Assembly (NCBI GenBank): GCA_964510805.1
Contig: CAZEDG010000001.1
Span: 48,227 to 112,226, forward strand
DNA length: 64,000 bases
Origin: an uncultured Candidatus Saccharibacteria bacterium
GTDB lineage: Bacteria; Patescibacteriota; Minisyncoccia; Phycocordibacterales; UBA5272
Direction: 5' to 3'
The position numbers were made by a program, and so were the translations under genes. Below, in pieces: positions 1 to 46,997 of this stretch. The notes beneath the pieces are model-generated. The model was not told where the DNA came from, ran no database searches, and saw only the letters and a list, made by a program, of their open reading frames with translations. Within the stretch, counting starts at the first letter, position 1; each line of letters starts with the position of its first letter.

Positions 1-1
1 A

Positions 2-607
2 AACGAAGAATATCTCCTTGCTGTTTTTTATAAAGAGCTTTCCAGAGGGAGACTTCCGCACTACGAAGAGCTTAAGTTGCGTGGCCGAGGAGAGAAGATT
101 GTAAAGAAGCTTCTTGAAGAAATTCCCCATCATTATACCGGAGAACTTAAGGTTGAAGTTGATATGAAGGATGAAGGGGTTATGGTAGGTGATGCGCATC
201 TTATCGGGAAGATCGATCTTCTTGAGCAAAGAGACGGAATGTATACAGTGGTTGATTTTAAGACAGGTAAAGCTTTTTCTTCATGGGATTCTGCAGTGAC
301 TGATCTTGATAAGATTAAGTTACATAAGTACCGACAGCAACTCATCGTGTACAAACTACTTCTTGAGAATTCGATTCATTACAAAGGTACTCCTGTTGGT
401 AAGCTTGCGCTTAACTTTGTAGAAGAGGATGTGTTTACTGAACTTGTCCTTGATAGTGATGAAGTGGAAATAGAGAGAACGAAGAAGCTTATCGAAGCGG
501 TATATCACAAAATTGTCACACTACAGATTACGCCTGATCTCAGTAAGTATGAACCAACCTATAAAGGTATGAGGCAGTTTGAGGATGATTTGATTGATGG
601 TATGTAG
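2..607 (+). CDS. PD-(D/E)xK (RecB-like) nuclease domain, 5'-truncated at window edge; probably the C-terminus of a larger helicase-nuclease
   Basis: Frame open to position 2. RecB nuclease motifs GKIDLL, VVDFKTGK (D-x-K) and QQLIVY (QxxxY). Confidence 0.55.
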   Translation, partial: NEEYLLAVFYKELSRGRLPHYEELKLRGRGEKIVKKLLEEIPHHYTGELKVEVDMKDEGVMVGDAHLIGKIDLLEQRDGMYTVVDFKTGKAFSSWDSAVTDLDKIKLHKYRQQLIVYKLLLENSIHYKGTPVGKLALNFVEEDVFTELVLDSDEVEIERTKKLIEAVYHKIVTLQITPDLSKYEPTYKGMRQFEDDLIDGM

Positions 608-735
608 AATGAAGACTAGATGTTGGACGTTAGACTTTAGATATTAGAAAATACAGAAAACACAAAGAACGAAGCCCTCAGCTTTGCTCTAACTAATAAC
701 CAATTACGAATTACGAGTGGTATACTATCTTTACT

Positions 736-1611
736 ATGCCTGATAAATATTCTGCAGTGTGGGTATCTCATTCTTCGATGGGGGATTTTCTTAAATGTCC
801 ACGACTTTATTATCTTCATAACGTGTACAAGGATCCTAAAACTTTTCGTAAGATGACCATAGTAACGCCATACATGTCACTAGGTATCGCAGTACATAAT
901 GTACTCGAAGGACTTGGACAGTTCCCGTCTAACGAGCGCATGGATCGTGATCTTATTGCTTGGTTCAATGAAGAGTGGAAAAAAGTTTCTGGTCGGAAAG
1001 GCGGATTTCTTACAGAAGCACAAGACGAAGAGTTCAGGCTTCGTGGTGAGACAATGATACAGACCGCGATTGATAATCCACGTTTTCTTACCAATAAGCG
1101 AATCAAGCTTCCTCAAGGGAATATGCCTTGCAACTTCTATCTTTCTGAAGAAGATAATATTATTTTGAATGGTCTTGTTGATTGGATAGAATATCTTCCT
1201 GATGACACACTCCATGTGATTGACTTTAAGACAGGAAAGAATGAAGAGAGCGAATCATCAATGCAACTCCCTATTTATCTTCTTCTTTGTAATGCGCTTC
1301 AGAAGAGAAAAGTTGCCAAGGCGAGTTATTGGTATCTAGATGGTGACAAGATGGTAGAAAAGACTCTTCCTGACGAAAAGATTGCATACGAAGAAGTGCT
1401 CCGCACGGCAAAGAAAGTAAAAGAAGCAAGAGATAAAAAAGAATTTATATGTCCACAAGGAGATGGTGGATGTATGCACTGTAAGCCTTATGAAGCAATT
1501 CTCCGCCATAAAGAAGGCGAACACAATGAGGTTGAATATATAGGAGTTGGAGGGTTCAATCAGGATGTGTATATTATTGATAAAGAAAAAGGGATAGACA
1601 TACCATTTTAA
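736..1611 (+). CDS. Cas4/AddB-like PD-(D/E)xK nuclease with putative 4Fe-4S cysteine cluster
   Basis: N-terminal Cys (CPRLYY), GLVDWIE, VIDFKTGK, QLPIY (QxxxY), C-terminal CPQGDGGCMHC. Confidence 0.6.
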   Translation: MPDKYSAVWVSHSSMGDFLKCPRLYYLHNVYKDPKTFRKMTIVTPYMSLGIAVHNVLEGLGQFPSNERMDRDLIAWFNEEWKKVSGRKGGFLTEAQDEEFRLRGETMIQTAIDNPRFLTNKRIKLPQGNMPCNFYLSEEDNIILNGLVDWIEYLPDDTLHVIDFKTGKNEESESSMQLPIYLLLCNALQKRKVAKASYWYLDGDKMVEKTLPDEKIAYEEVLRTAKKVKEARDKKEFICPQGDGGCMHCKPYEAILRHKEGEHNEVEYIGVGGFNQDVYIIDKEKGIDIPF

Positions 1612-2315
1612 TGTACGATATACTTAGTATATTTAATAAGAAAATCTGTATGACACTACTTGGAAAATTTGTAATCGGGTCCTTTGCAATTCTTGTTGCT
1701 TCGGGTATCTTCTACGGTGTGATGTCGTATGTAGAACAAGATAATATTGCTTCACTTACAAAAAAAGAACAAAAGAAAGAAGAGGTTGTTGCAACATCAT
1801 CAACACCTACCGATGCGTCATCATCGGAACTTCTTGGGTTCGAGGCTACAGGTAATGGAACTTCTACCTTTCCTGTAGATCTTTCGGTTGATGCTTCTTC
1901 TACAAAACAAGCAACGTCATCAAAAAAATCCCCATCTAACAAAATTTCTTTTGTTGATTTTGTAAAGAAAGGAGGAGATTATAAGTGTGCGGTGACTCAG
2001 ACAGTTGCTAATATGACAAGCAACGGCACAGTGTATGTTTCGAATGATCTTGTAAGAGCAGAGTTCTCTACTTCCCTTGCAGGACAGACAATCAATACAA
2101 CAATGATTGCTCGCGATGGGTATACGTATACATGGACTTCAATGTCACAAGGTAAGGGGTACAAAGCAAAGATCACACAAGGTGCTTCTACTAATACAAC
2201 AAAAGCAACCTATACATGGAACGGGAGTCAGGTCGGAGAGTATTCATGTGATCCGTGGAAATTTGATAAGACGAAGTTTGACCTTCCAAAGGGTGTGACG
2301 TTTACGGAGATGTAA
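1611..2315 (+). CDS. membrane-anchored protein with S/T-rich linker, unknown function
   Basis: N-terminal TM helix, low-complexity S/T stretch; start overlaps upstream stop (ATGTAA). Confidence 0.4.
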   Translation: MYDILSIFNKKICMTLLGKFVIGSFAILVASGIFYGVMSYVEQDNIASLTKKEQKKEEVVATSSTPTDASSSELLGFEATGNGTSTFPVDLSVDASSTKQATSSKKSPSNKISFVDFVKKGGDYKCAVTQTVANMTSNGTVYVSNDLVRAEFSTSLAGQTINTTMIARDGYTYTWTSMSQGKGYKAKITQGASTNTTKATYTWNGSQVGEYSCDPWKFDKTKFDLPKGVTFTEM

Positions 2316-2362
2316 GGAATCGTTATTCGTAATTAGTTATTCGTAATTCGTGTAAAACAAGG

Positions 2363-2405
2363 AATCGCTACAAGGCGAATTCCTTGTAGCGATTTATTTT
2401 TGTTT
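2363..2405 (+). terminator. rho-independent terminator between convergent genes
   Basis: 13-bp stem aatcgctacaagg/ccttgtagcgatt, loop cgaatt, then a T-run. Confidence 0.6.
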
Positions 2406-2690
2406 AATGGGTCCGTATGGGATTTTCCCATCAAGATAGTCTTTTGGGTTCACGGTGATATTACCGTCACTAACTATTTGAGTAGTTTTTCTACGGTAAA
2501 CCCCGTTAGTATTTTGGTTCTTACAGACAAGAAGAACACTTTGTGGAACTTTTTCTCTACTAAGAGTATTATTGTATTCAACGGCAATAATTGAATTACC
2601 GTAGCCACAATTTTCTGGGTCTCTATCTTCGAAGATGCAAGCGCTTAGTGCGGTAGAAGTAATCAAAAGAACAACAAATGCTGTGTGCAT
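2394..2690 (-). CDS. small lipoprotein, unknown function
   Basis: Signal peptide with lipobox LSAC. Confidence 0.4.
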   Translation of the reverse strand: MHTAFVVLLITSTALSACIFEDRDPENCGYGNSIIAVEYNNTLSREKVPQSVLLVCKNQNTNGVYRRKTTQIVSDGNITVNPKDYLDGKIPYGPIKQK

Positions 2691-2813
2691 ATTGGGTCTC
2701 CAAGTGGAAAAACAGCTTTTATGATACTACAATATCTAGCAAAGTAAGTCAATTTTTGGTTATGTATTTCTCTAACCTCTAACGTCTAATATCTAAAATC
2801 TAGATATGCTATA

Positions 2814-3563
2814 ATGTCCAGTATGTTATATTGTTACGGAAAAAATCCTCTTCATGAAGCACTTAAGAAGCATGTCAAGACTCCATGCATTGAGAAGCTT
2901 TTTATTACAAAGCAAGCACTTCTCGAAAAAGATATTGCAAGTGCAATTGATCGTTACAAGCTTCCTTATACTGTTGTTACCCGTGAAGAGATTGAACATC
3001 AGGTGGGTAAGTCATCAGTACATCAAGGGGTGATGTTTACAGTGCATGAGAAATCCCTTTTTGTTCCACTTGATACGCTTCTTGTTGCATTAGAAAAGAA
3101 AGAGCGACCCCTCCTTGTACTTCTTGATGCATTAGAAGACCCGCACAACATCGGTGCAATTATTCGTTCTGCTCTTGCTTTTGGTGCAGATGGTATTATT
3201 CTCTCCCATCGTCACACAGGATCGCTTACAGGAACTTCTGTAAAAGCTTCTGCTGGCGCGCTTTTCCATATTCCTCTTGCGGAAGTAGTGAATACTAATG
3301 CTACACTTATTGCTCTTAAGAAGCGTCGTTTTTGGATATATGCGCTTGTAGGAGGAGGTGATACTTCGCTTACAAAGGTAGCTTTTGACAGTCCTTCTGT
3401 TCTTGTGGTTGGTAATGAAGGAGAAGGAATAGGGAAGAAGACGCTTGAGCACTCTGATTTTAGACTTTCTATTCCTATTACAAAAGAATGCGAATCGCTT
3501 AATGCATCAAATGCAACAGCTGTTGCGCTCTATGAATGGAGGAGGCAAAATAATGCAATATAA
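2814..3563 (+). CDS. rlmB: SpoU/TrmH-family RNA 2'-O-methyltransferase (RlmB-like)
   Basis: Motifs NIGAIIRSA, VVGNEGEGI, SLNASNATAVALYE. Confidence 0.75.
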   Translation: MSSMLYCYGKNPLHEALKKHVKTPCIEKLFITKQALLEKDIASAIDRYKLPYTVVTREEIEHQVGKSSVHQGVMFTVHEKSLFVPLDTLLVALEKKERPLLVLLDALEDPHNIGAIIRSALAFGADGIILSHRHTGSLTGTSVKASAGALFHIPLAEVVNTNATLIALKKRRFWIYALVGGGDTSLTKVAFDSPSVLVVGNEGEGIGKKTLEHSDFRLSIPITKECESLNASNATAVALYEWRRQNNAI

Positions 3564-3607
3564 TTATATTGTGTAAATCATGCATATTGCTAAATAAATG
3601 CTAAAAT

Positions 3608-4663
3608 GTGCCTATGATTAAGCGACTTACGAAGCATCTCTCGAATGATATTGGAATTGATCTTGGAACTGCTAATACACTCGTGTATCTTCGTGGAAGA
3701 GGAATTGTGATTAATGAGCCTTCTGTGGTTGCGGTGAATGCTAAGACTAATCGTGTTGTTGCTGTTGGTATCGAAGCGAAGAACATGATGGGAAGAACTC
3801 CGTCGCATATTCGTATTGTACGACCTCTTGTTGATGGTGTGATTTCTGATTATGAAGTAACGGAAGAGATGCTTAGTTATCTTATCAATAAAGCCAATGA
3901 GATTGATCGTAAGCCATTTCGTCCTCGTGTTGTCATCGGTGTACCGGTCGGAATCACCAATGTAGAGATGCGTGCTGTCTATGACGCTGCTAAGTCAGCA
4001 GGAGCAAGTAGTATCTTTATTGTAGAAGAACCGATGTCTGCAGCGATCGGTGTACACATGCCAATTCATGAACCAGTTGGAAGTATGATTGTTGATATCG
4101 GAGGAGGGACTACTGATATTGCTGTGATTGCGCTCTCAGGTATTGTACGAGCGAAAAGTCTTAAGGTTGCAGGAGATAAGCTTACAGAAGACATCATCTC
4201 GTATATGCGTGACGAGTTCAAGATGCTTATCGGAGAAAAAACAGGTGAGCATATCAAAATGACAATAGGGTCTGCACTTCCTGACGAAAACACTCAAGAG
4301 TTAAGCGTAAAAGGCCGTGATCTTGTAACAGGACTTCCACGAGAAGCAATTATTACTGACGTCGATGTACGAGAAGCGATGTATTCTTCTGTTGCGTCAC
4401 TTGTGGATGCGATTCGTGAAGTACTTGAGACTACTCCACCTGAAGTACTCTCTGATATTATGCATAAAGGTATCACTCTTGCAGGAGGAGGTGCGCTTAT
4501 TAGGAATTTACCTAACCTGCTCGAGATGCAACTCAAAGTTCCAGTTACTGTCGCTGATGATCCTCTCACTGCAGTTGCTCGTGGTACAGGAATTATTCTC
4601 GAACATCTTGATCGCTACAAGGATGTACTTATAGAAAACACCGATGACATATCATTTAGGTAA
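3608..4663 (+). CDS. mreB: rod shape-determining protein MreB
   Basis: IGIDLGTANT, DIGGGTTD; actin-like ATPase. ATG at 3614 is an alternative start. Confidence 0.9.
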   Translation: MPMIKRLTKHLSNDIGIDLGTANTLVYLRGRGIVINEPSVVAVNAKTNRVVAVGIEAKNMMGRTPSHIRIVRPLVDGVISDYEVTEEMLSYLINKANEIDRKPFRPRVVIGVPVGITNVEMRAVYDAAKSAGASSIFIVEEPMSAAIGVHMPIHEPVGSMIVDIGGGTTDIAVIALSGIVRAKSLKVAGDKLTEDIISYMRDEFKMLIGEKTGEHIKMTIGSALPDENTQELSVKGRDLVTGLPREAIITDVDVREAMYSSVASLVDAIREVLETTPPEVLSDIMHKGITLAGGGALIRNLPNLLEMQLKVPVTVADDPLTAVARGTGIILEHLDRYKDVLIENTDDISFR

Positions 4664-5438
4664 AAAAAGAAGATCACCATTAATCAAGTATGGGATAGCG
4701 AGCATGCTTATCATACTCTATGCTTTTTTTTGGCCTACCATAAAAAAAACACTCTACCCTCTATTTGAGCCTCTTGTAGTAAGCTATGCTGACTCTAAGG
4801 GGGCGCTTGGATTTTTCCCTACATTTATACAGACCTATGTTATTTCTCATAAAACTTTAGAAAATGAGAACACAGCACTTAAAGCTGTAATCGAAACACT
4901 TGAGAATCAGGTTGCCAAGCAAGACGCAGAACTTCGCGAGTATGGTCTTATTCATGACGAGAATGCAAGCAGTTCTTTTCCTGTAGAGGACAAACCTATT
5001 GTTATGTATCCACTTTCTCAAGATATTACGAAGTTGTACTCAAGCATTGTACTCTCTAAAGGTTTCAAAGACGGTGTTGCTGTTAATATGCTTGTTTCTG
5101 TAAAAGGAAGAAATGTTGTCTGTCGTATCAAGGAAGTATATCGATCTACCTCGCTCTGTGAACTACTCTCTTCGTACGGAGTGACTACAGAAGGGGTTAC
5201 TTCATCATCTTCGGTAACACTTACTCTCTCTGGTCGTGGAGGACATTACTTGGGAGACGTTGCAAGAGATACACCTATTACAGAAGGAGAAAAAGTATAC
5301 CTCCGTAGCAATCCAAGCCTTGTTCTTGGAACAGTAAGGCAGGTGCTCACTAATAATCAGGCAACGTCGTGGTATGTTTTTGTGGAGACTGTCTATAACC
5401 CGGTTTCCTCTTCCGTTTTTTATGCAGAACAGGAGTGA
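4644..5438 (+). CDS. mreC: rod shape-determining protein MreC
   Basis: Position after mreB; TM, coiled coil, beta-rich C-terminus. Confidence 0.65.
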   Translation: MTYHLGKKRRSPLIKYGIASMLIILYAFFWPTIKKTLYPLFEPLVVSYADSKGALGFFPTFIQTYVISHKTLENENTALKAVIETLENQVAKQDAELREYGLIHDENASSSFPVEDKPIVMYPLSQDITKLYSSIVLSKGFKDGVAVNMLVSVKGRNVVCRIKEVYRSTSLCELLSSYGVTTEGVTSSSSVTLTLSGRGGHYLGDVARDTPITEGEKVYLRSNPSLVLGTVRQVLTNNQATSWYVFVETVYNPVSSSVFYAEQE

Positions 5439-5601
5439 TGTTTCTAAAAAAAAGTATAGCTTTATCTCTATAGGTCTTTTCCTTGCATTTCTTTTTGATC
5501 TTTTTTTGGGGACAGAGAGACTCCCTATAGCCTCACTTCTTGTCTGTGGTATAGTAGGGGTATATGCGTTTATTTCGCCGTATATTTACAGACCGCGCTA
5601 G
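5422..5601 (+). CDS. small 2-TM membrane protein, possible truncated MreD
   Basis: Synteny only (mreB-mreC-X-mrdA); two hydrophobic helices. Confidence 0.2.
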   Translation: MQNRSDVSKKKYSFISIGLFLAFLFDLFLGTERLPIASLLVCGIVGVYAFISPYIYRPR

Positions 5602-7303
5602 GCGTGCTGCTTCTCATGAGATTAGTCCTGAGGATGTGTTCATTGATTCACAGAACCTCTCCTCGCTTAATCTTGACCAGATGGAAGGGCAACTTGAGAG
5701 ACCTCTTGGAAAACATGTTTTTTATATTGCGCTTTTTTTGATCATCCTTCTTGTTGGAGGTTTTTCGTATCGACTATTTGCTATGCAGATACTTGGAAGA
5801 GAGGAATATCAAGAGCTTGCAGATAATAATCATCTGAAGAAGATACCACTCTTTCCTCTTCGTGGTACGATTTCTGATCGTAATGGAAAGTTGCTTGCAT
5901 GGAATTCAGAGTACGAAGTAGGAAGCTCAACAGAAAAACAAAAAATTACCGATGATATTCCTCGTCGTGAGTATACAAGCGAAGGAGGCTTTTCTCATCT
6001 TCTTGGTTATGTAAGTTATCCTAAACGTGATCAGTCAGGTGTCTTTTGGCAAGATGAATACTTCGGTAAAGACGGCGTTGAAAAAGAGTATCAAAATGAG
6101 CTCGCTGGAGTAAAAGGTGAACGTATCATTGAGGTGACTGCAACACAATCAGTTGAGGCGCAGAATGTGGTGGTATATCCTTCGCACGGGGAGAATCTCA
6201 TGCTTACTATTGATAAAGATGTTCAGGCAAAACTCTACGAGGAGATGATTGCACTTTCTCATAAGGCAGGATTTACAGGAGGTTCTGGGGTGATTATGGA
6301 TGTACGAAATGGAGAAATTCTTGCGCTTACAAGTTTTCCTGAGTATGATAACAATCTCATTACGAATGCTAAGACAAAAGAAGACAAAACACGTGTAGCT
6401 GATGATCTTCTTGATAAACGTGGCAAGTTCATCAATCGCCCTGTACAAGGGCTCTTTACTCCAGGATCAACGGTGAAGCCTTTTTTTGCGTACGCTGCTC
6501 TTGCTGAAAATATCATTACTCCAGAAAAAAATATTTACAGTTCTGGAAAGCTTGTGATTAAGAACAGATATGATGGACCTGATACTGTTTTTCGTGACTG
6601 GAAAGCACATGGGTATGTGGATATGCGTAACGCAATTGCTGAGTCATCCGATGAATACTTCTATCAAGTAGGAGGTGGGTATCAAGACCAGCCTGGACTT
6701 GGTATTGCAAGACTTCATGAATATGCGACTAAGTTTGGCTTTGCAACAACAACGGGAATAGATTTACCTGGAGAGAATTATGGGCTAGTTCCTTCCCCAG
6801 AATGGAAGAAAAAAGTGTTTAACGAAGATTGGCTTTTGGGGAATACCTACCATTCATCAATCGGACAGTATGGATTCCAAGTTACTCCGCTTGAGCTTGT
6901 GAGAGCGGTTGCTTCGATCGCTAATGGTGGATACCTCGTAACTCCTCATGTGCTTAGACGGCTGGATACTGCAAGTACTTCGCTCTCACTTAATCAGTCT
7001 AAGCTTAGTGTGATTCAGGAAGGGATGCGTCTTGCAGTTACAAGTGATGGAGGTACCGCTAAGGCGTTACGAATTGATGATGTGCATGTTGCTGGTAAAT
7101 CAGGTACCGCAGAACTTGGCGTGAGTAAGCAGTTAGTGAACTCTTGGATTAGTGGATATTTTCCATATGAAAACCCAAGGTATGCCTTTGTAGTAATCAT
7201 GGAAAAAGGCGATAGACATAATCCATTCGGTGCAGTCGGTGCAATGAGAGAGGTATTACTTTGGATGAGAGATAACACTTCGTATACGAAGGCGGGGGAG
7301 TAG
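5564..7303 (+). CDS. mrdA: penicillin-binding protein 2 (elongasome transpeptidase)
   Basis: STVK (SxxK), SSD, KSGTA (KTG) motifs. Alternative start ATG at 5681 (MEGQLERP...). Confidence 0.85.
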   Translation: MRLFRRIFTDRARRAASHEISPEDVFIDSQNLSSLNLDQMEGQLERPLGKHVFYIALFLIILLVGGFSYRLFAMQILGREEYQELADNNHLKKIPLFPLRGTISDRNGKLLAWNSEYEVGSSTEKQKITDDIPRREYTSEGGFSHLLGYVSYPKRDQSGVFWQDEYFGKDGVEKEYQNELAGVKGERIIEVTATQSVEAQNVVVYPSHGENLMLTIDKDVQAKLYEEMIALSHKAGFTGGSGVIMDVRNGEILALTSFPEYDNNLITNAKTKEDKTRVADDLLDKRGKFINRPVQGLFTPGSTVKPFFAYAALAENIITPEKNIYSSGKLVIKNRYDGPDTVFRDWKAHGYVDMRNAIAESSDEYFYQVGGGYQDQPGLGIARLHEYATKFGFATTTGIDLPGENYGLVPSPEWKKKVFNEDWLLGNTYHSSIGQYGFQVTPLELVRAVASIANGGYLVTPHVLRRLDTASTSLSLNQSKLSVIQEGMRLAVTSDGGTAKALRIDDVHVAGKSGTAELGVSKQLVNSWISGYFPYENPRYAFVVIMEKGDRHNPFGAVGAMREVLLWMRDNTSYTKAGE

Positions 7304-7348
7304 AAGACGGCGTACATACATTTTTTAATGAAAAGAAAAATGAAAAGT

Positions 7349-7372
7349 GCGCGAAGCCAAGAGGCTTCGCGC
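7349..7372 (-). terminator. rho-independent terminator for the minus-strand gene 7415..7783
   Basis: gcgcgaagcc-aaga-ggcttcgcgc followed by a T-run on the minus strand. Confidence 0.55.
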
Positions 7373-7414
7373 ATGGTGTTCTTACTTGCCCGTTAGATAA
7401 CTAGGGCAGCCTCC

Positions 7415-7783
7415 TTAAACACTTCTTTGCTTGGTTGAGATTTGGATGAATGGTCCGGTAAGAGGTTCCTCAAAAACGCTATCGCAATTATTTTTGTAAA
7501 GTCTCGGCACTTCTTTACTCACTTGCTGGCCATCGCTTAAGCGTGGGTAAGAATACAAGAAAGGAGTACCTGTTCTGCCTGTACAACTAATACGTGCAAG
7601 TCCATTTCTGGATTCGTATTCGGGTACTACGATATTGTCCAACCCAACACTCAGAATGGTCTTTTGTGTTGGAAACGGTTCCTCTTTTCCTTCTCTTGAA
7701 AGGAAGAAGATACTAACAGTACCTCCGCACCTGACTGATTGTTGCATTTTTGAGTCTCTTTCTTTATGATAAGATCCACTCAT
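7415..7783 (-). CDS. hypothetical protein, possibly leaderless
   Basis: TTGACA-N17-GATAAT promoter with the -10 box overlapping the ATG; no homolog recognised. Confidence 0.3.
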   Translation of the reverse strand: MSGSYHKERDSKMQQSVRCGGTVSIFFLSREGKEEPFPTQKTILSVGLDNIVVPEYESRNGLARISCTGRTGTPFLYSYPRLSDGQQVSKEVPRLYKNNCDSVFEEPLTGPFIQISTKQRSV

Positions 7784-7862
7784 TATCCTGCACTAATTAA
7801 GTATATTTGTCAATATTTAACAACAATGAAGAGTGTGGTACAATGGTGAGCACACTTTATTT

Positions 7863-8318
7863 ATGGAATATCTAACCTTAGAAAAGAAACAATTATTAGA
7901 AGATGAGCTTAAGAATCTCAAGACGGTTCGCCGTAAGGAGATAGCTGACGCTCTTGAATATGCTAAAAGTCTCGGCGATCTCTCAGAAAACGCTGAGTAT
8001 CATCAAGCACGTGAAGATCAAGCCAACTGTGAGGATCGTATTAGTCATATTGAGCAAATTCTCAAGAATGCAGTGATTATGGAGTCATCTCTTTCAGGGG
8101 TGATACATGTTGGTTCTACTGTTACTGTGCTTAAGAAAGGAGAGAAGCAAGAGCGAACCTATGCTCTTGTTGGAAGTGAGGAAGCAGATTCAATTTCTGG
8201 AAAGATTTCTAATGAATCACCACTTGGACAAGCGCTTCTTGGAAAGAAGAAAGGCGACAAGGTAACAGTACATGCTCCAAAAGGAGAGATGGAATATTCT
8301 ATTGTTGGAATAGAATAA
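7863..8318 (+). CDS. greA: transcription elongation factor GreA
   Basis: N-terminal coiled coil plus C-terminal FKBP-like domain, typical GreA length. Confidence 0.85.
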   Translation: MEYLTLEKKQLLEDELKNLKTVRRKEIADALEYAKSLGDLSENAEYHQAREDQANCEDRISHIEQILKNAVIMESSLSGVIHVGSTVTVLKKGEKQERTYALVGSEEADSISGKISNESPLGQALLGKKKGDKVTVHAPKGEMEYSIVGIE

Positions 8319-8379
8319 GAAAGACGACAGAATACTGACTAGATTTTAGAGATTAGACTTTAGGTATTAGTTGGGCACA

Positions 8380-8420
8380 GAATACAAAGAGCGACGCCGT
8401 AGGCGTCGCTCTTTGTATTC
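8380..8420 (+). terminator. rho-independent terminator, conserved hairpin family
   Basis: 19-bp perfect stem gaatacaaagagcgacgcc / ggcgtcgctctttgtattc, loop gta, T-rich tail. Confidence 0.7.
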
Positions 8421-8601
8421 TTAGTTATGTTTTTGCTTTTTGTTTTCATTCTTCATTCCTCCCTCTTTTCCTAATATCTAAAGTCTAATATCTACTATCT
8501 AGTCTTGTGTCGACTAACTCCCCACAATTTGTTATGATGGCTGTATGAATGTATTATAGTGGTGACTAATTACGAATAACTAATAACGAATAACTATCCC
8601 T

Positions 8602-10059
8602 ATGGCATCCCTCGAAGAACTTAAGCAATCTCGCATAAAAAAATTAGAAGCGCTTAAAGAGCGTGGGTATGTACCGTATCCAAGCAAGGCCAAGACAACT
8701 CACACCCTCAAAGAGCTTACTCATTCTTTTGCTTCACTTGAAAGTTCTCACGAAGTTGTTACTGTAGCAGGTCGTGTCATGTCATCACGTGGGCAAGGCG
8801 CTCTTGTTTTCTTTGATCTCTACGATGGTACCGCAAGACTTCAGTCAGTAATTAAGCTTCCAGAGTCAGGGGAAGTTGCTCACGCTTTTTATAATGAATT
8901 TGTTGATATCGGTGATTTTGTTTCTGTGACAGGGACAGCTTTTGTCACCCGTTCAGGTCAACCAAGTATTCTTGTGTCAGAGGTTTCTATGCTTTCTAAG
9001 TCACTTCTTCCTCTTCCTGATAAGTATCACGGGATTCAAGATGAAGAGCTTCGTATGCGTGAGAGATATCTTGATATCCTTACTAACGGAGAGCTTCGTG
9101 ATCTTTTTGAAAAGAAGGCTAAGTTTTGGAATGTGGTGAGAACTTTTCTTGGTGAACGAGGATTTCTTGAAGTTGAGACGCCAACTATCGAAATTACAAC
9201 AGGAGGCGCAGAAGCAAGACCTTTCAAAACATATCACAATGATTTTGATCTTAACGTGTTTATGCGTATTTCGATTGGTGAACTTTGGCAAAAACGCCTC
9301 ATGTCTGCAGGATTTCCAAGAACATTTGAGATAGGGCGAGCATACCGTAATGAAGGTTCTTCACCGGAACATGTACAAGAATTTACTAACTGTGAATTCT
9401 ATATGGCGTATGCTAATTATGAGGATGGTATGAAACTTGTTGAGGAGTTGTATCGAAGAATTGCACAAGAGGTGTTCGGTACTACCATCTTTACGACACG
9501 TGGGCATACTTTTGACCTGTCAGAGGAATGGAGACGTGTTGACTATAGGGAAGAGATTCTTAAGCAGACAGGTATCGATATCATGAAAGCAACAGATGAA
9601 GAGATTGTTACTAAACTTCAATCACTGCATGTAAAGTATGACGGCACGAATCGCGAGAGACTTACGGATACACTTTGGAAATATTGCCGTAAGCATATTG
9701 CTGGACCTGCTTTTCTTATTAACCATCCGCTTCTTGTTGCTCCGCTTGCAAAAGCAAATGAAGACGGTGTTACTGCACAAATATTCCAGCCAATCTTAGC
9801 AGGAAGCGAAATTGGAAAGGGGTATAGTGAGTTAAATGATCCAATTGATCAACGTGAGCGCTTCGATAAACAGCAAGAACTACTTGCCTCCGGTGATGAA
9901 GAAGCTATGATGGCGGATGATTCTTTTGTTGAAATGCTCGAGCATGGTATGCCTCCTACATGTGGATTTGGTTTTGGTGAACGATTATTTGCTTTTCTTG
10001 TAGATAAACCAATTCGTGAAGTGCATATGTTCCCACTTGTAAAACCGAAAGGAGAATGA
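8602..10059 (+). CDS. lysS: lysyl-tRNA synthetase, class II
   Basis: Class II aaRS motifs; N-terminal OB anticodon-binding domain. Confidence 0.9.
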   Translation: MASLEELKQSRIKKLEALKERGYVPYPSKAKTTHTLKELTHSFASLESSHEVVTVAGRVMSSRGQGALVFFDLYDGTARLQSVIKLPESGEVAHAFYNEFVDIGDFVSVTGTAFVTRSGQPSILVSEVSMLSKSLLPLPDKYHGIQDEELRMRERYLDILTNGELRDLFEKKAKFWNVVRTFLGERGFLEVETPTIEITTGGAEARPFKTYHNDFDLNVFMRISIGELWQKRLMSAGFPRTFEIGRAYRNEGSSPEHVQEFTNCEFYMAYANYEDGMKLVEELYRRIAQEVFGTTIFTTRGHTFDLSEEWRRVDYREEILKQTGIDIMKATDEEIVTKLQSLHVKYDGTNRERLTDTLWKYCRKHIAGPAFLINHPLLVAPLAKANEDGVTAQIFQPILAGSEIGKGYSELNDPIDQRERFDKQQELLASGDEEAMMADDSFVEMLEHGMPPTCGFGFGERLFAFLVDKPIREVHMFPLVKPKGE

Positions 10060-10126
10060 AGAGTGAAGAGTGAAGTTAATACATAAATCCTAAATTAAAG
10101 ATAACAGATTACAGATAGAAGTACAT

Positions 10127-18284: not shown

Positions 18285-18495
18285 CAAGAGCTATCTCTCT
18301 AAAAACACTATGAAATTTTTTAACTACACTATTGAAGTCAAGCAAGCAGATCAAGTGATTAAACAAAGCGAACTCATCCATATCAGTAGAATTGGAGACT
18401 TCGCAAAAAGAATCGCCTAAAAAAGTATTAACCATCAACCGCTTCCTTGTATTTACCAATTACTAATAACGAATTACTAATAACCATTAACTAAC

Positions 18496-37572: not shown

Positions 37573-37620
37573 ATTTTTTCTATTAACTATCAACCATTAA
37601 CTATTAACTGAATTTATATT

Positions 37621-46929: not shown

Positions 46930-46959
46930 AGGGAGTGAGGAATGAAGAATGAGGAATGA
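46930..46959 (+). repeat. (GAATGAG)n heptad repeat (TGA-type stop repeat)
   Basis: gagtgag gaatgaa gaatgag gaatgag directly after the aspS stop. Confidence 0.7.
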
Positions 46960-46968
46960 GGTTGCAAG

Positions 46969-46997
46969 AGAAGAGCGACGCCGTAGGCGTCGCTCTT
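46969..46997 (+). terminator. rho-independent terminator, conserved hairpin family
   Basis: gaagagcgacgcc-gta-ggcgtcgctcttc. Confidence 0.65.

Follow-up and report, generated by a model that had tools for sequence, protein, structure and literature searches.

A predicted stand-alone iron-staple nuclease encoded next to a helicase-nuclease in Paceibacteria

Results

Two nuclease genes at the start of the window

We analyzed a stretch of 64,000 nucleotides from contig CAZEDG010000001.1 (assembly GCA_964510805.1, positions 48,227 to 112,226 of the forward strand), referred to here as the window. Two adjacent genes for PD-(D/E)xK nucleases are located at its start (Table 1). Gene 1 is truncated by the window edge. 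Judged from its orthologs, it is the C-terminus of a ~1080-amino acid (aa) PcrA/UvrD-like superfamily 1A (SF1A) helicase fused to a cluster-free RecB-type nuclease. Gene 2 is predicted to be a stand-alone iron-staple-type nuclease of the Cas4/AddB/AdnA/Dna2 kind. Both look like chromosomal DNA repair or recombination genes of a bacterium of the Paceibacteria (Parcubacteria, candidate phyla radiation (CPR)), and not genes of a clustered regularly interspaced short palindromic repeats (CRISPR) system. A preliminary description of the locus had located both reading frames correctly.

Table 1. Coordinates of features at the start of the window
Feature	Position	Strand	Description
Gene 1, 3' end	2..607	+	201 aa in translation; open from base 2; TAG stop at 605-607
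Spacer between gene 1 and gene 2	608..735	.	128 bp; heptad elements and extended -10-like box
Gene 2	736..1611	+	predicted 291-aa stand-alone Cas4-family / RecB-type PD-(D/E)xK nuclease
Gene 3	1650..2315	+	neighbor outside the nuclease pair; 234-codon open reading frame (ORF) spans 1611-2315
End of the gene 2-gene 3 unit	2320..2395	.	TCGTAAT heptads at 2320-2353, then terminator hairpin

Gene 2 is a predicted stand-alone iron-staple nuclease

The Pfam model PDDEXK_1 (PF12705) matches residues 10-250 of gene 2 with an E value of 2e-22 and a score of 80.7 bits, well over the gathering cut-off of 22 bits. The Pfam model Cas_Cas4 (PF01930) gives 25.2 bits (E 1.9e-5), marginally over its cut-off of 22.7, and the cas4 model TIGR00372 gives 34.2 bits, under its cut-off of 65. 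Taken over both genes, models of AddA and AddB score 12-129 bits against cut-offs of 486-861; for gene 2 with addB_alphas, the values are 15 and 486 bits.

The predicted catalytic residues are H54, D149 (nt 1180-1182), D163-x-K165 (1222-1230) and Q177xxxY181 (1264-1278). Four cysteines, C21 (796-798), C239 (1450-1452), C246 (1471-1473) and C249 (1480-1482), are the predicted ligands of a metal cluster. In an alignment of 43 gene 2 homologs, down to 22% identity, C21, G50, D149, D163, K165, Q177, Y181 and C249 are invariant, and H54, C239 and C246 reach at least 90% conservation. In iron-staple nucleases, a metal cluster is held by one N-terminal and three C-terminal cysteines. These enzymes act on single-stranded DNA (ssDNA), usually the 5' strand made by a helicase (PMC3466216, PMC7430649, PMC12094033). 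The same arrangement of one plus three cysteines is seen in 41 of the 43 aligned sequences. Gene 2 probably holds a 4Fe-4S cluster between C21 and C239/C246/C249.

The spacing of the C-terminal cysteines is unusual. In AddB and Cas4, the canonical spacing is C-x2-C-x5-C. Most members of the gene 2 family (38/43) have C-x(3-7)-C-x2-C. Only three relatives, the most distant ones, keep the canonical form, and these have a proline at position 239. The fourth cysteine ligand appears to have moved from after the CxxC pair to before it. The preliminary description had assigned gene 2 a Cas4/AddB signature. Its one N-terminal and three C-terminal cysteines and its D-DxK/QxxxY core stand, and the C-x6-C-x2-C it contained is not the canonical spacing.

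Structural analysis agrees with this assignment. The AlphaFold2 model of gene 2 is a single domain with a predicted local distance difference test score of 95.1 and a predicted template modeling score of 0.90. A Foldseek search with this model identified ACE1 as the best match (E 2e-10). AdnA's and Dna2's nuclease domains follow, and Cas4 and AddB are more distant. Apart from RecE, all close structural relatives are iron-staple nucleases. The sequence profile of gene 2 matches ACE1 (E 2e-11) and AdnA (E 5e-8) across positions 10-250. The PDDEXK_1 and Cas_Cas4 matches and the ACE1 structural match support the Cas4/AddB-like nuclease type proposed in the preliminary description.

The gene 2 family is large. 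In a collection clustered at 90%, 3500 of 4024 candidates match at E <= 0.001, and 534 matches are found among representatives at 50% identity. Many homologs are named 'RecB family exonuclease' or 'helicase/DNase subunit B' by the Joint Genome Institute (JGI). Relatives occur in metagenome-assembled genomes labeled Paceibacterota, Parcubacteria, Nomurabacteria, Yonathbacteria, Kaiserbacteria and Taylorbacteria, which assigns the window to a CPR bacterium of the Paceibacteria type.

Some family members have unusual architectures. In P0069 (378 aa, on a 90 kb NCBI contig), an ortholog of gene 2, a GIY-YIG domain (PF01541) of ~95 aa is inserted in frame between D156 and D157, in the loop joining the strands of motif II and motif III. 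P0222, P0269 and P0273 (1047-1297 aa), as well as P0245 and P0263, contain 2-5 tandem PDDEXK_1/Cas4-like domains per polypeptide and no helicase. Rosetta-stone proteins joining gene 2 with a helicase were considered and rejected, since the long matches are such tandem nuclease-domain arrays.

Gene 1 is the tail of a predicted helicase-nuclease

The gene 1 fragment matches PDDEXK_1 with an E value of 7.5e-13 and 49.4 bits. Its scores with the Cas4 models PF01930 and TIGR00372 are under both cut-offs. The predicted catalytic residues are D72 (nt 215-217), D85-x-K87 (254-262) and Q113xxxY117 (338-352), each with a conservation of at least 90% among 38 gene 1 orthologs. These intact motifs indicate a nuclease that is apparently active. 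The fragment contains no cysteine, and no conserved cysteine column is present in the last 330 residues of the 38 orthologs. The preliminary description had reported RecB motifs I to III without cysteines. The core motifs and the lack of cysteines are confirmed; for motif I, E52 is the only candidate.

Over its whole length, the fragment aligns with the C-terminal ends of proteins of 1071-1099 aa from related loci (L002-L005), which contain UvrD-helicase, AAA_19, UvrD_C and PDDEXK_1 domains. Full-length orthologs are 1063-1135 aa as called. The preliminary description had proposed extending the sequence upstream for a fused UvrD-like helicase, and the helicase portion is indeed present in every orthologous locus with upstream DNA. 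In a reciprocal search of metagenome contigs with the gene 1 fragment, it was found in all loci with more than ~1 kb of upstream sequence. From these orthologs we infer the same fusion in the organism of the window.

Full-length orthologs score highest with models of PcrA, UvrD and Rep (209-286 bits, yet below the cut-offs), with PcrA/UvrD at 278-286 bits. The scores with RecB, AddA and RecB-like models are 79-138 bits, also below the family cut-offs; the AddA models TIGR02785 and TIGR02784, whose cut-offs are 708 and 861, give 96-129 bits. By sequence, the best solved relative is PcrA. These scores, the fused domains and the conserved motifs therefore identify gene 1 as the likely tail of a PcrA/UvrD-like helicase-nuclease.

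Linkage of gene 1 and gene 2

We analyzed 80 gene 2 loci from species-representative genomes, and counted the 66 with at least 5 kb of upstream sequence. In 36 of the 66, gene 2 has a helicase-nuclease gene upstream of it in the same orientation. At gene 2 identities of at least 62%, it is found in 34 of 46 loci. The helicase-nuclease is the most conserved neighbor of gene 2 even where the downstream neighbor differs; the downstream clusters include c6, c11 (TspO), c24, c47 and c128. The gap between the two genes ranges from 1-8 nt in three loci (L020, L022 and L030) up to 4.3 kb. The reciprocal comparison gave a similar picture. Seven loci carry a gene 1 relative of at least 63% identity; gene 2 is located 0.5-2.4 kb downstream in six of them, and the downstream DNA of the seventh is too short. 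Other large neighbors in loci lacking the helicase, identified by eye as RpoB/RpoC, DnaE, CTP synthase and PBP1A, are housekeeping proteins and were set aside as uninformative.

A number of observations weigh against a functional pair. Synteny drops to 2/20 loci when gene 2 identity is below 62%. From the other direction, the loci whose gene 1 relative is 34-59% identical all lack gene 2 in their downstream sequence of up to 8 kb. The two genes are often separated by one to four small, variable ORFs or by a transposase (L002). The pair is located in a larger conserved block of unrelated genes, including those for an HD domain protein, a SpoU methylase, MreB/C and PBP2. Inherited gene order alone could therefore explain the linkage. 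In two loci (L003 and L012), an intrinsic terminator is located right after the helicase gene. Gene 2 usually has a promoter-like box of its own: in 57 of the 82 distinct upstream regions, a TA(T/C)A(A/C)T sequence, TATACT in most cases, ends 4-25 nt ahead of its start, against a control rate of 3% at random positions. This box and the terminators speak against an operon that is obligatory. Among the 150 best representatives, none has a gene 2-type domain fused to a helicase. In addition, gene 2 lacks the part of AddB responsible for AddA contact and Chi reading. Functional pairing of the two genes is plausible but unproven, with its support coming from synteny restricted to one lineage.

A second helicase neighborhood

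In nine other loci (L059, L060, L062-L064, L066, L073, L077 and L079), gene 2 orthologs are located within ~770 bp of a gene for a PIF1-like superfamily 1B (SF1B) helicase. The encoded protein is 550 aa long and contains PIF1, a Pif1 2B domain and a C-terminal HTH_40 domain. Both gene orders are found. The gap is 18-19 bp where the PIF1-like gene precedes gene 2, and 37-635 bp where it follows; in five of the nine loci it is 18-86 bp. The PIF1-like genes form two groups that are ~46% identical to each other. No such gene was found in the 64-kb window. The arrangement looks like a split version of Dna2 or Bad.

Search for CRISPR and Argonaute genes

Tandem Repeats Finder identified no array-like repeats in the window, and the window contains no direct repeats of at least 22 nt within 200 nt of each other. 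PADLOC was applied to the 66 window ORFs. Its only Cas matches are Cas4-like ones to the two nucleases, with no match to Cas1, Cas2 or an effector. Argonaute models do not match any of the 66 ORFs. The absence of CRISPR arrays and cas genes near the two nucleases, noted in the preliminary description, thus extends over the whole window, and a CRISPR association was rejected. A viral or mobile origin of gene 2 was rejected as well, since its relatives on viral contigs are only 24-41% identical, mostly in partial alignments.

Spacer, gene 3 and dispersed repeats

The window is ~40% G+C and nearly all of its genes are on the + strand. The spacer between gene 1 and gene 2 contains a TTAGA-heptad element at 614-647 and AT-rich ATTACGA/ACTAATA heptads at 690-716. 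A TGg-TATACT extended -10-like box at 717-725 is located 10 nt ahead of the ATG of gene 2. The spacer shows neither a terminator-like hairpin nor a significant RNA fold (z-score -0.15), and an Rfam scan of window positions 1-9000 gave nothing meaningful; a structured RNA or terminator in this spacer was rejected on these results. In related loci (L002-L059), the TATACT box is often located ~10-20 nt ahead of the start codon of gene 2, and no Shine-Dalgarno sequence is evident there. This suggests that gene 2 in Paceibacteria has a leaderless or very short mRNA.

Gene 3 follows gene 2 directly. Its true start is probably M14 at 1650 rather than the ATG at 1611, which overlaps the stop codon of gene 2. 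The protein has a transmembrane anchor, a disordered linker rich in Ser/Thr, and a LolA/LolB-like beta domain in which C126 and C213 are invariant. It is conserved in Paceibacteria and belongs to no assigned family. A LolA/LolB-like fold is surprising in a lineage usually considered to lack an outer membrane. Gene 3 was rejected as a third component of the nuclease pair, as a membrane-anchored LolA-like envelope protein whose overlap with gene 2 probably reflects a wrongly called start codon. The TCGTAAT heptads that follow gene 3 contain a 25-nt, 88% inverted match to 692-716. The terminator hairpin at 2362-2395 is intrinsic and bidirectional. The preliminary description had placed repeat elements after both nuclease genes. 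This does not hold for gene 2, which is followed by gene 3; heptads follow gene 1, and the second block comes after gene 3. Further downstream are a gene for a SpoU-type methylase and ORFs matching MreB, MreC, PBP2 and GreA annotated in the syntenic locus L002.

Several repeats are dispersed over the window. A 34-nt element, GACTAGAT-N8-TTAGACTTTAGATATTAG, is present at 614-647 (+), 8337-8370 (+) and 8471-8504 (-), three copies against none expected. Near 8.4 kb, its two copies are in inverted orientation and lie on either side of a bidirectional terminator hairpin at 8378-8420. In 86 other loci searched the element was not found, with the sole exception of L001, which is from the same organism. 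The hairpin core GAGCGACGCCGTAGGCGTCGCTC is used at two distant intergenic sites, 8378-8420 and ~46966-46995. Arrays of the AT-rich heptads ACTAATA/ATTACGA/ACCAATT are located at 690-716, 8563-8596, 18453-18494 and 37580-37609, directly 5' of the + strand start codons at 736, 8602, 18496 and 37621, with an inverted copy at 2320-2353. The pattern has 11 matches, against ~2 expected. These arrays are possibly promoter or 5'-leader elements. GAATGA(A/G) heptads are found at or just past stop codons (605-613, 10047-10075 and 46932-46961). Two of the 66 window ORFs match the PADLOC model 'mad2' of the MADS system (best E 7.6e-18), which may reflect a generic domain shared with the model.

Discussion

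A possible role in DNA end processing

Our analysis points tentatively, at just short of an even chance, to a role of gene 2 in helicase-coupled DNA end processing, with cluster binding, cutting polarity and partnership all predicted features. An SF1 helicase would peel the 5'-ended strand off a DNA end. Gene 2 would thread this strand as ssDNA and trim it, cutting at its D-DxK metal site. In the lineage of the window, the partner would be the adjacent helicase-nuclease, whose own nuclease would cut the 3'-5' strand along which it tracks. In sister lineages, the PIF1-like helicase encoded alongside gene 2 would take that place. The pair would be analogous to AddA together with the nuclease domain of AddB, minus the Chi-scanning scaffold. 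At unwound ends, ssDNA is cut by ACE1, AdnA and AddB (PMC12094033). SF1 helicases are commonly accompanied by iron-staple nucleases (PMC7430649). The two distinct helicase neighborhoods of this solo nuclease fit this general rule, and modestly favor a helicase-assisted role.

A broader proposal is that Paceibacteria use a free iron-staple nuclease with a repositioned fourth cysteine as an exchangeable 5'-strand nuclease serving SF1 helicases. With the PcrA-like helicase-nuclease it would form a 'mini-AddAB' of two polypeptides and no Chi-scanning scaffold, and with the PIF1-like helicase of sister lineages a split Dna2/Bad. We regard this proposal as rather unlikely. If true, no smaller machinery for double-strand-break resection would have been described in bacteria, and it would show how AddB-type subunits could arise from a solo nuclease.

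Alternative explanations

Gene 2 may instead be an independent housekeeping ssDNA exo- or endonuclease of the COG2887 'RecB family exonuclease' type, which has no dedicated partner and functions in flap trimming, processing of recombination intermediates or DNA recycling. Its position would then reflect inherited gene order in one lineage. This is a real possibility, although we lean somewhat against it. ACE1 and solo Cas4 cut ssDNA alone (PMC12094033, PMC3466216), and the JGI name of many homologs corresponds to this type. The promoter-like box of gene 2, the terminators that part the two genes in some relatives, the surrounding block of unrelated housekeeping genes and the loss of linkage in distant relatives, from either direction, are all expected for such an enzyme. 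The contexts of homologs also differ, for example that of P0167. An independent nuclease accounts less well for the persistence of the helicase-nuclease as the most conserved neighbor despite differing downstream genes, and for the gaps of a few nucleotides in three loci. Moreover, the PIF1-like association in two orientations suggests repeated selection for proximity to a helicase.

A defense function is improbable. Gene 2 would be a solo Cas4/ACE-like nuclease that degrades invader DNA or generates guides or prespacers, alone or with the helicase-nuclease. Its best match by both sequence and structure is the Argonaute-associated ACE1, and the PADLOC models Cas4 and 'Aga_Cas4-like_Nuc' match it. 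In a 2017 survey, UvrD-Cas4-like fusions were tied to restriction-modification contexts, and defense or repair roles were suggested for solo Cas4 in small genomes (PMC5704561). However, PADLOC found no prokaryotic Argonaute (pAgo), cas1, cas2 or effector genes among the window ORFs, the window has no CRISPR array, and no restriction-modification genes are present among the PADLOC matches or the annotated flanking genes. The neighbors are cell-wall, translation and rRNA-modification genes. The family is 55-80% identical across many species, syntenic and apparently vertically inherited, and viral contigs carry only the distant relatives described above. It is far less probable still that gene 2 is a Cas4 of CRISPR adaptation with cas partners elsewhere in the genome, an explanation that is effectively refuted for the window. 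The Cas_Cas4 match just over its cut-off is its support. The TIGR00372 score is about half the required value, and the PDDEXK_1 score is far higher than either. There is no CRISPR or cas gene in the 64 kb beyond the Cas4-like matches, and none is called in four annotated related loci. Gene 2 is also longer than the matched solved Cas4 chains (202-218 residues), and its structure is nearer to ACE1, AdnA and Dna2 than to Cas4.

Significance and comparison with known systems

CPR bacteria, or Patescibacteria, have tiny genomes, and their DNA break resection is little studied. If the solo nuclease teams with the helicase-nuclease or the PIF1-like helicase, helicase-coupled end processing in these bacteria would use a minimal modular system, and it would offer a simple test bed for the role of the Fe-S 'staple'. 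As it stands, our analysis mainly provides a correct annotation and a modest mechanistic lead.

The genes themselves are of known types. The survey of Hudaiberdiev et al. (2017) described solo Cas4 of unknown function from numerous CPR genomes, among them Parcubacteria and Nomurabacteria, a large branch of pfam12705 made up of UvrD-nuclease fusions, and operons of unfused UvrD and Cas4-like genes in Clostridiales (PMC5704561). Gene 2 falls in its solo Cas4-like category and gene 1 among its UvrD-nuclease fusions. In view of these categories and the JGI names, both genes therefore belong to already catalogued kinds. The passages searched in the survey do not mention a helicase-nuclease fusion beside a solo iron-staple nuclease, a PIF1 neighborhood or a displaced cysteine ligand.

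ACE1, the nearest structural match of gene 2, is only 18% identical to it. ACE1 is cyanobacterial and is encoded in an operon with a long-A pAgo, whereas PADLOC found no pAgo in the window. It has a proline where gene 2 has C239, and a C-x2-C where gene 2 has C246/C249. Like ACE1, AdnA has no cysteine at the position aligned to C239.

Among helicase-nuclease complexes, the locus resembles AddAB of Bacillus subtilis (PDB 3U44, 4CEH). In both, one subunit combines an SF1A helicase with a cluster-free RecB nuclease, an iron-staple nuclease is on a second polypeptide, and the genes are adjacent. Gene 1 appears to have the domain architecture of AddA without being its ortholog. AddB has a large N-terminal domain, helicase-like but inactivated, for Chi recognition, whereas gene 2 is a single domain. 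The minimal AddA/AddB-like pair proposed in the preliminary description is a reasonable analogy in its domain logic; membership in the AddA and AddB families is not supported by the model scores, and the AddB scaffold is missing. In mycobacterial AdnAB (6PPR, 9NP6), both nucleases are fused to motors, whereas here one nuclease is free. In Dna2 and bacterial Bad (5EAN; PMC7430649), the iron-staple nuclease is fused to an SF1B helicase, whereas gene 2 is unfused.

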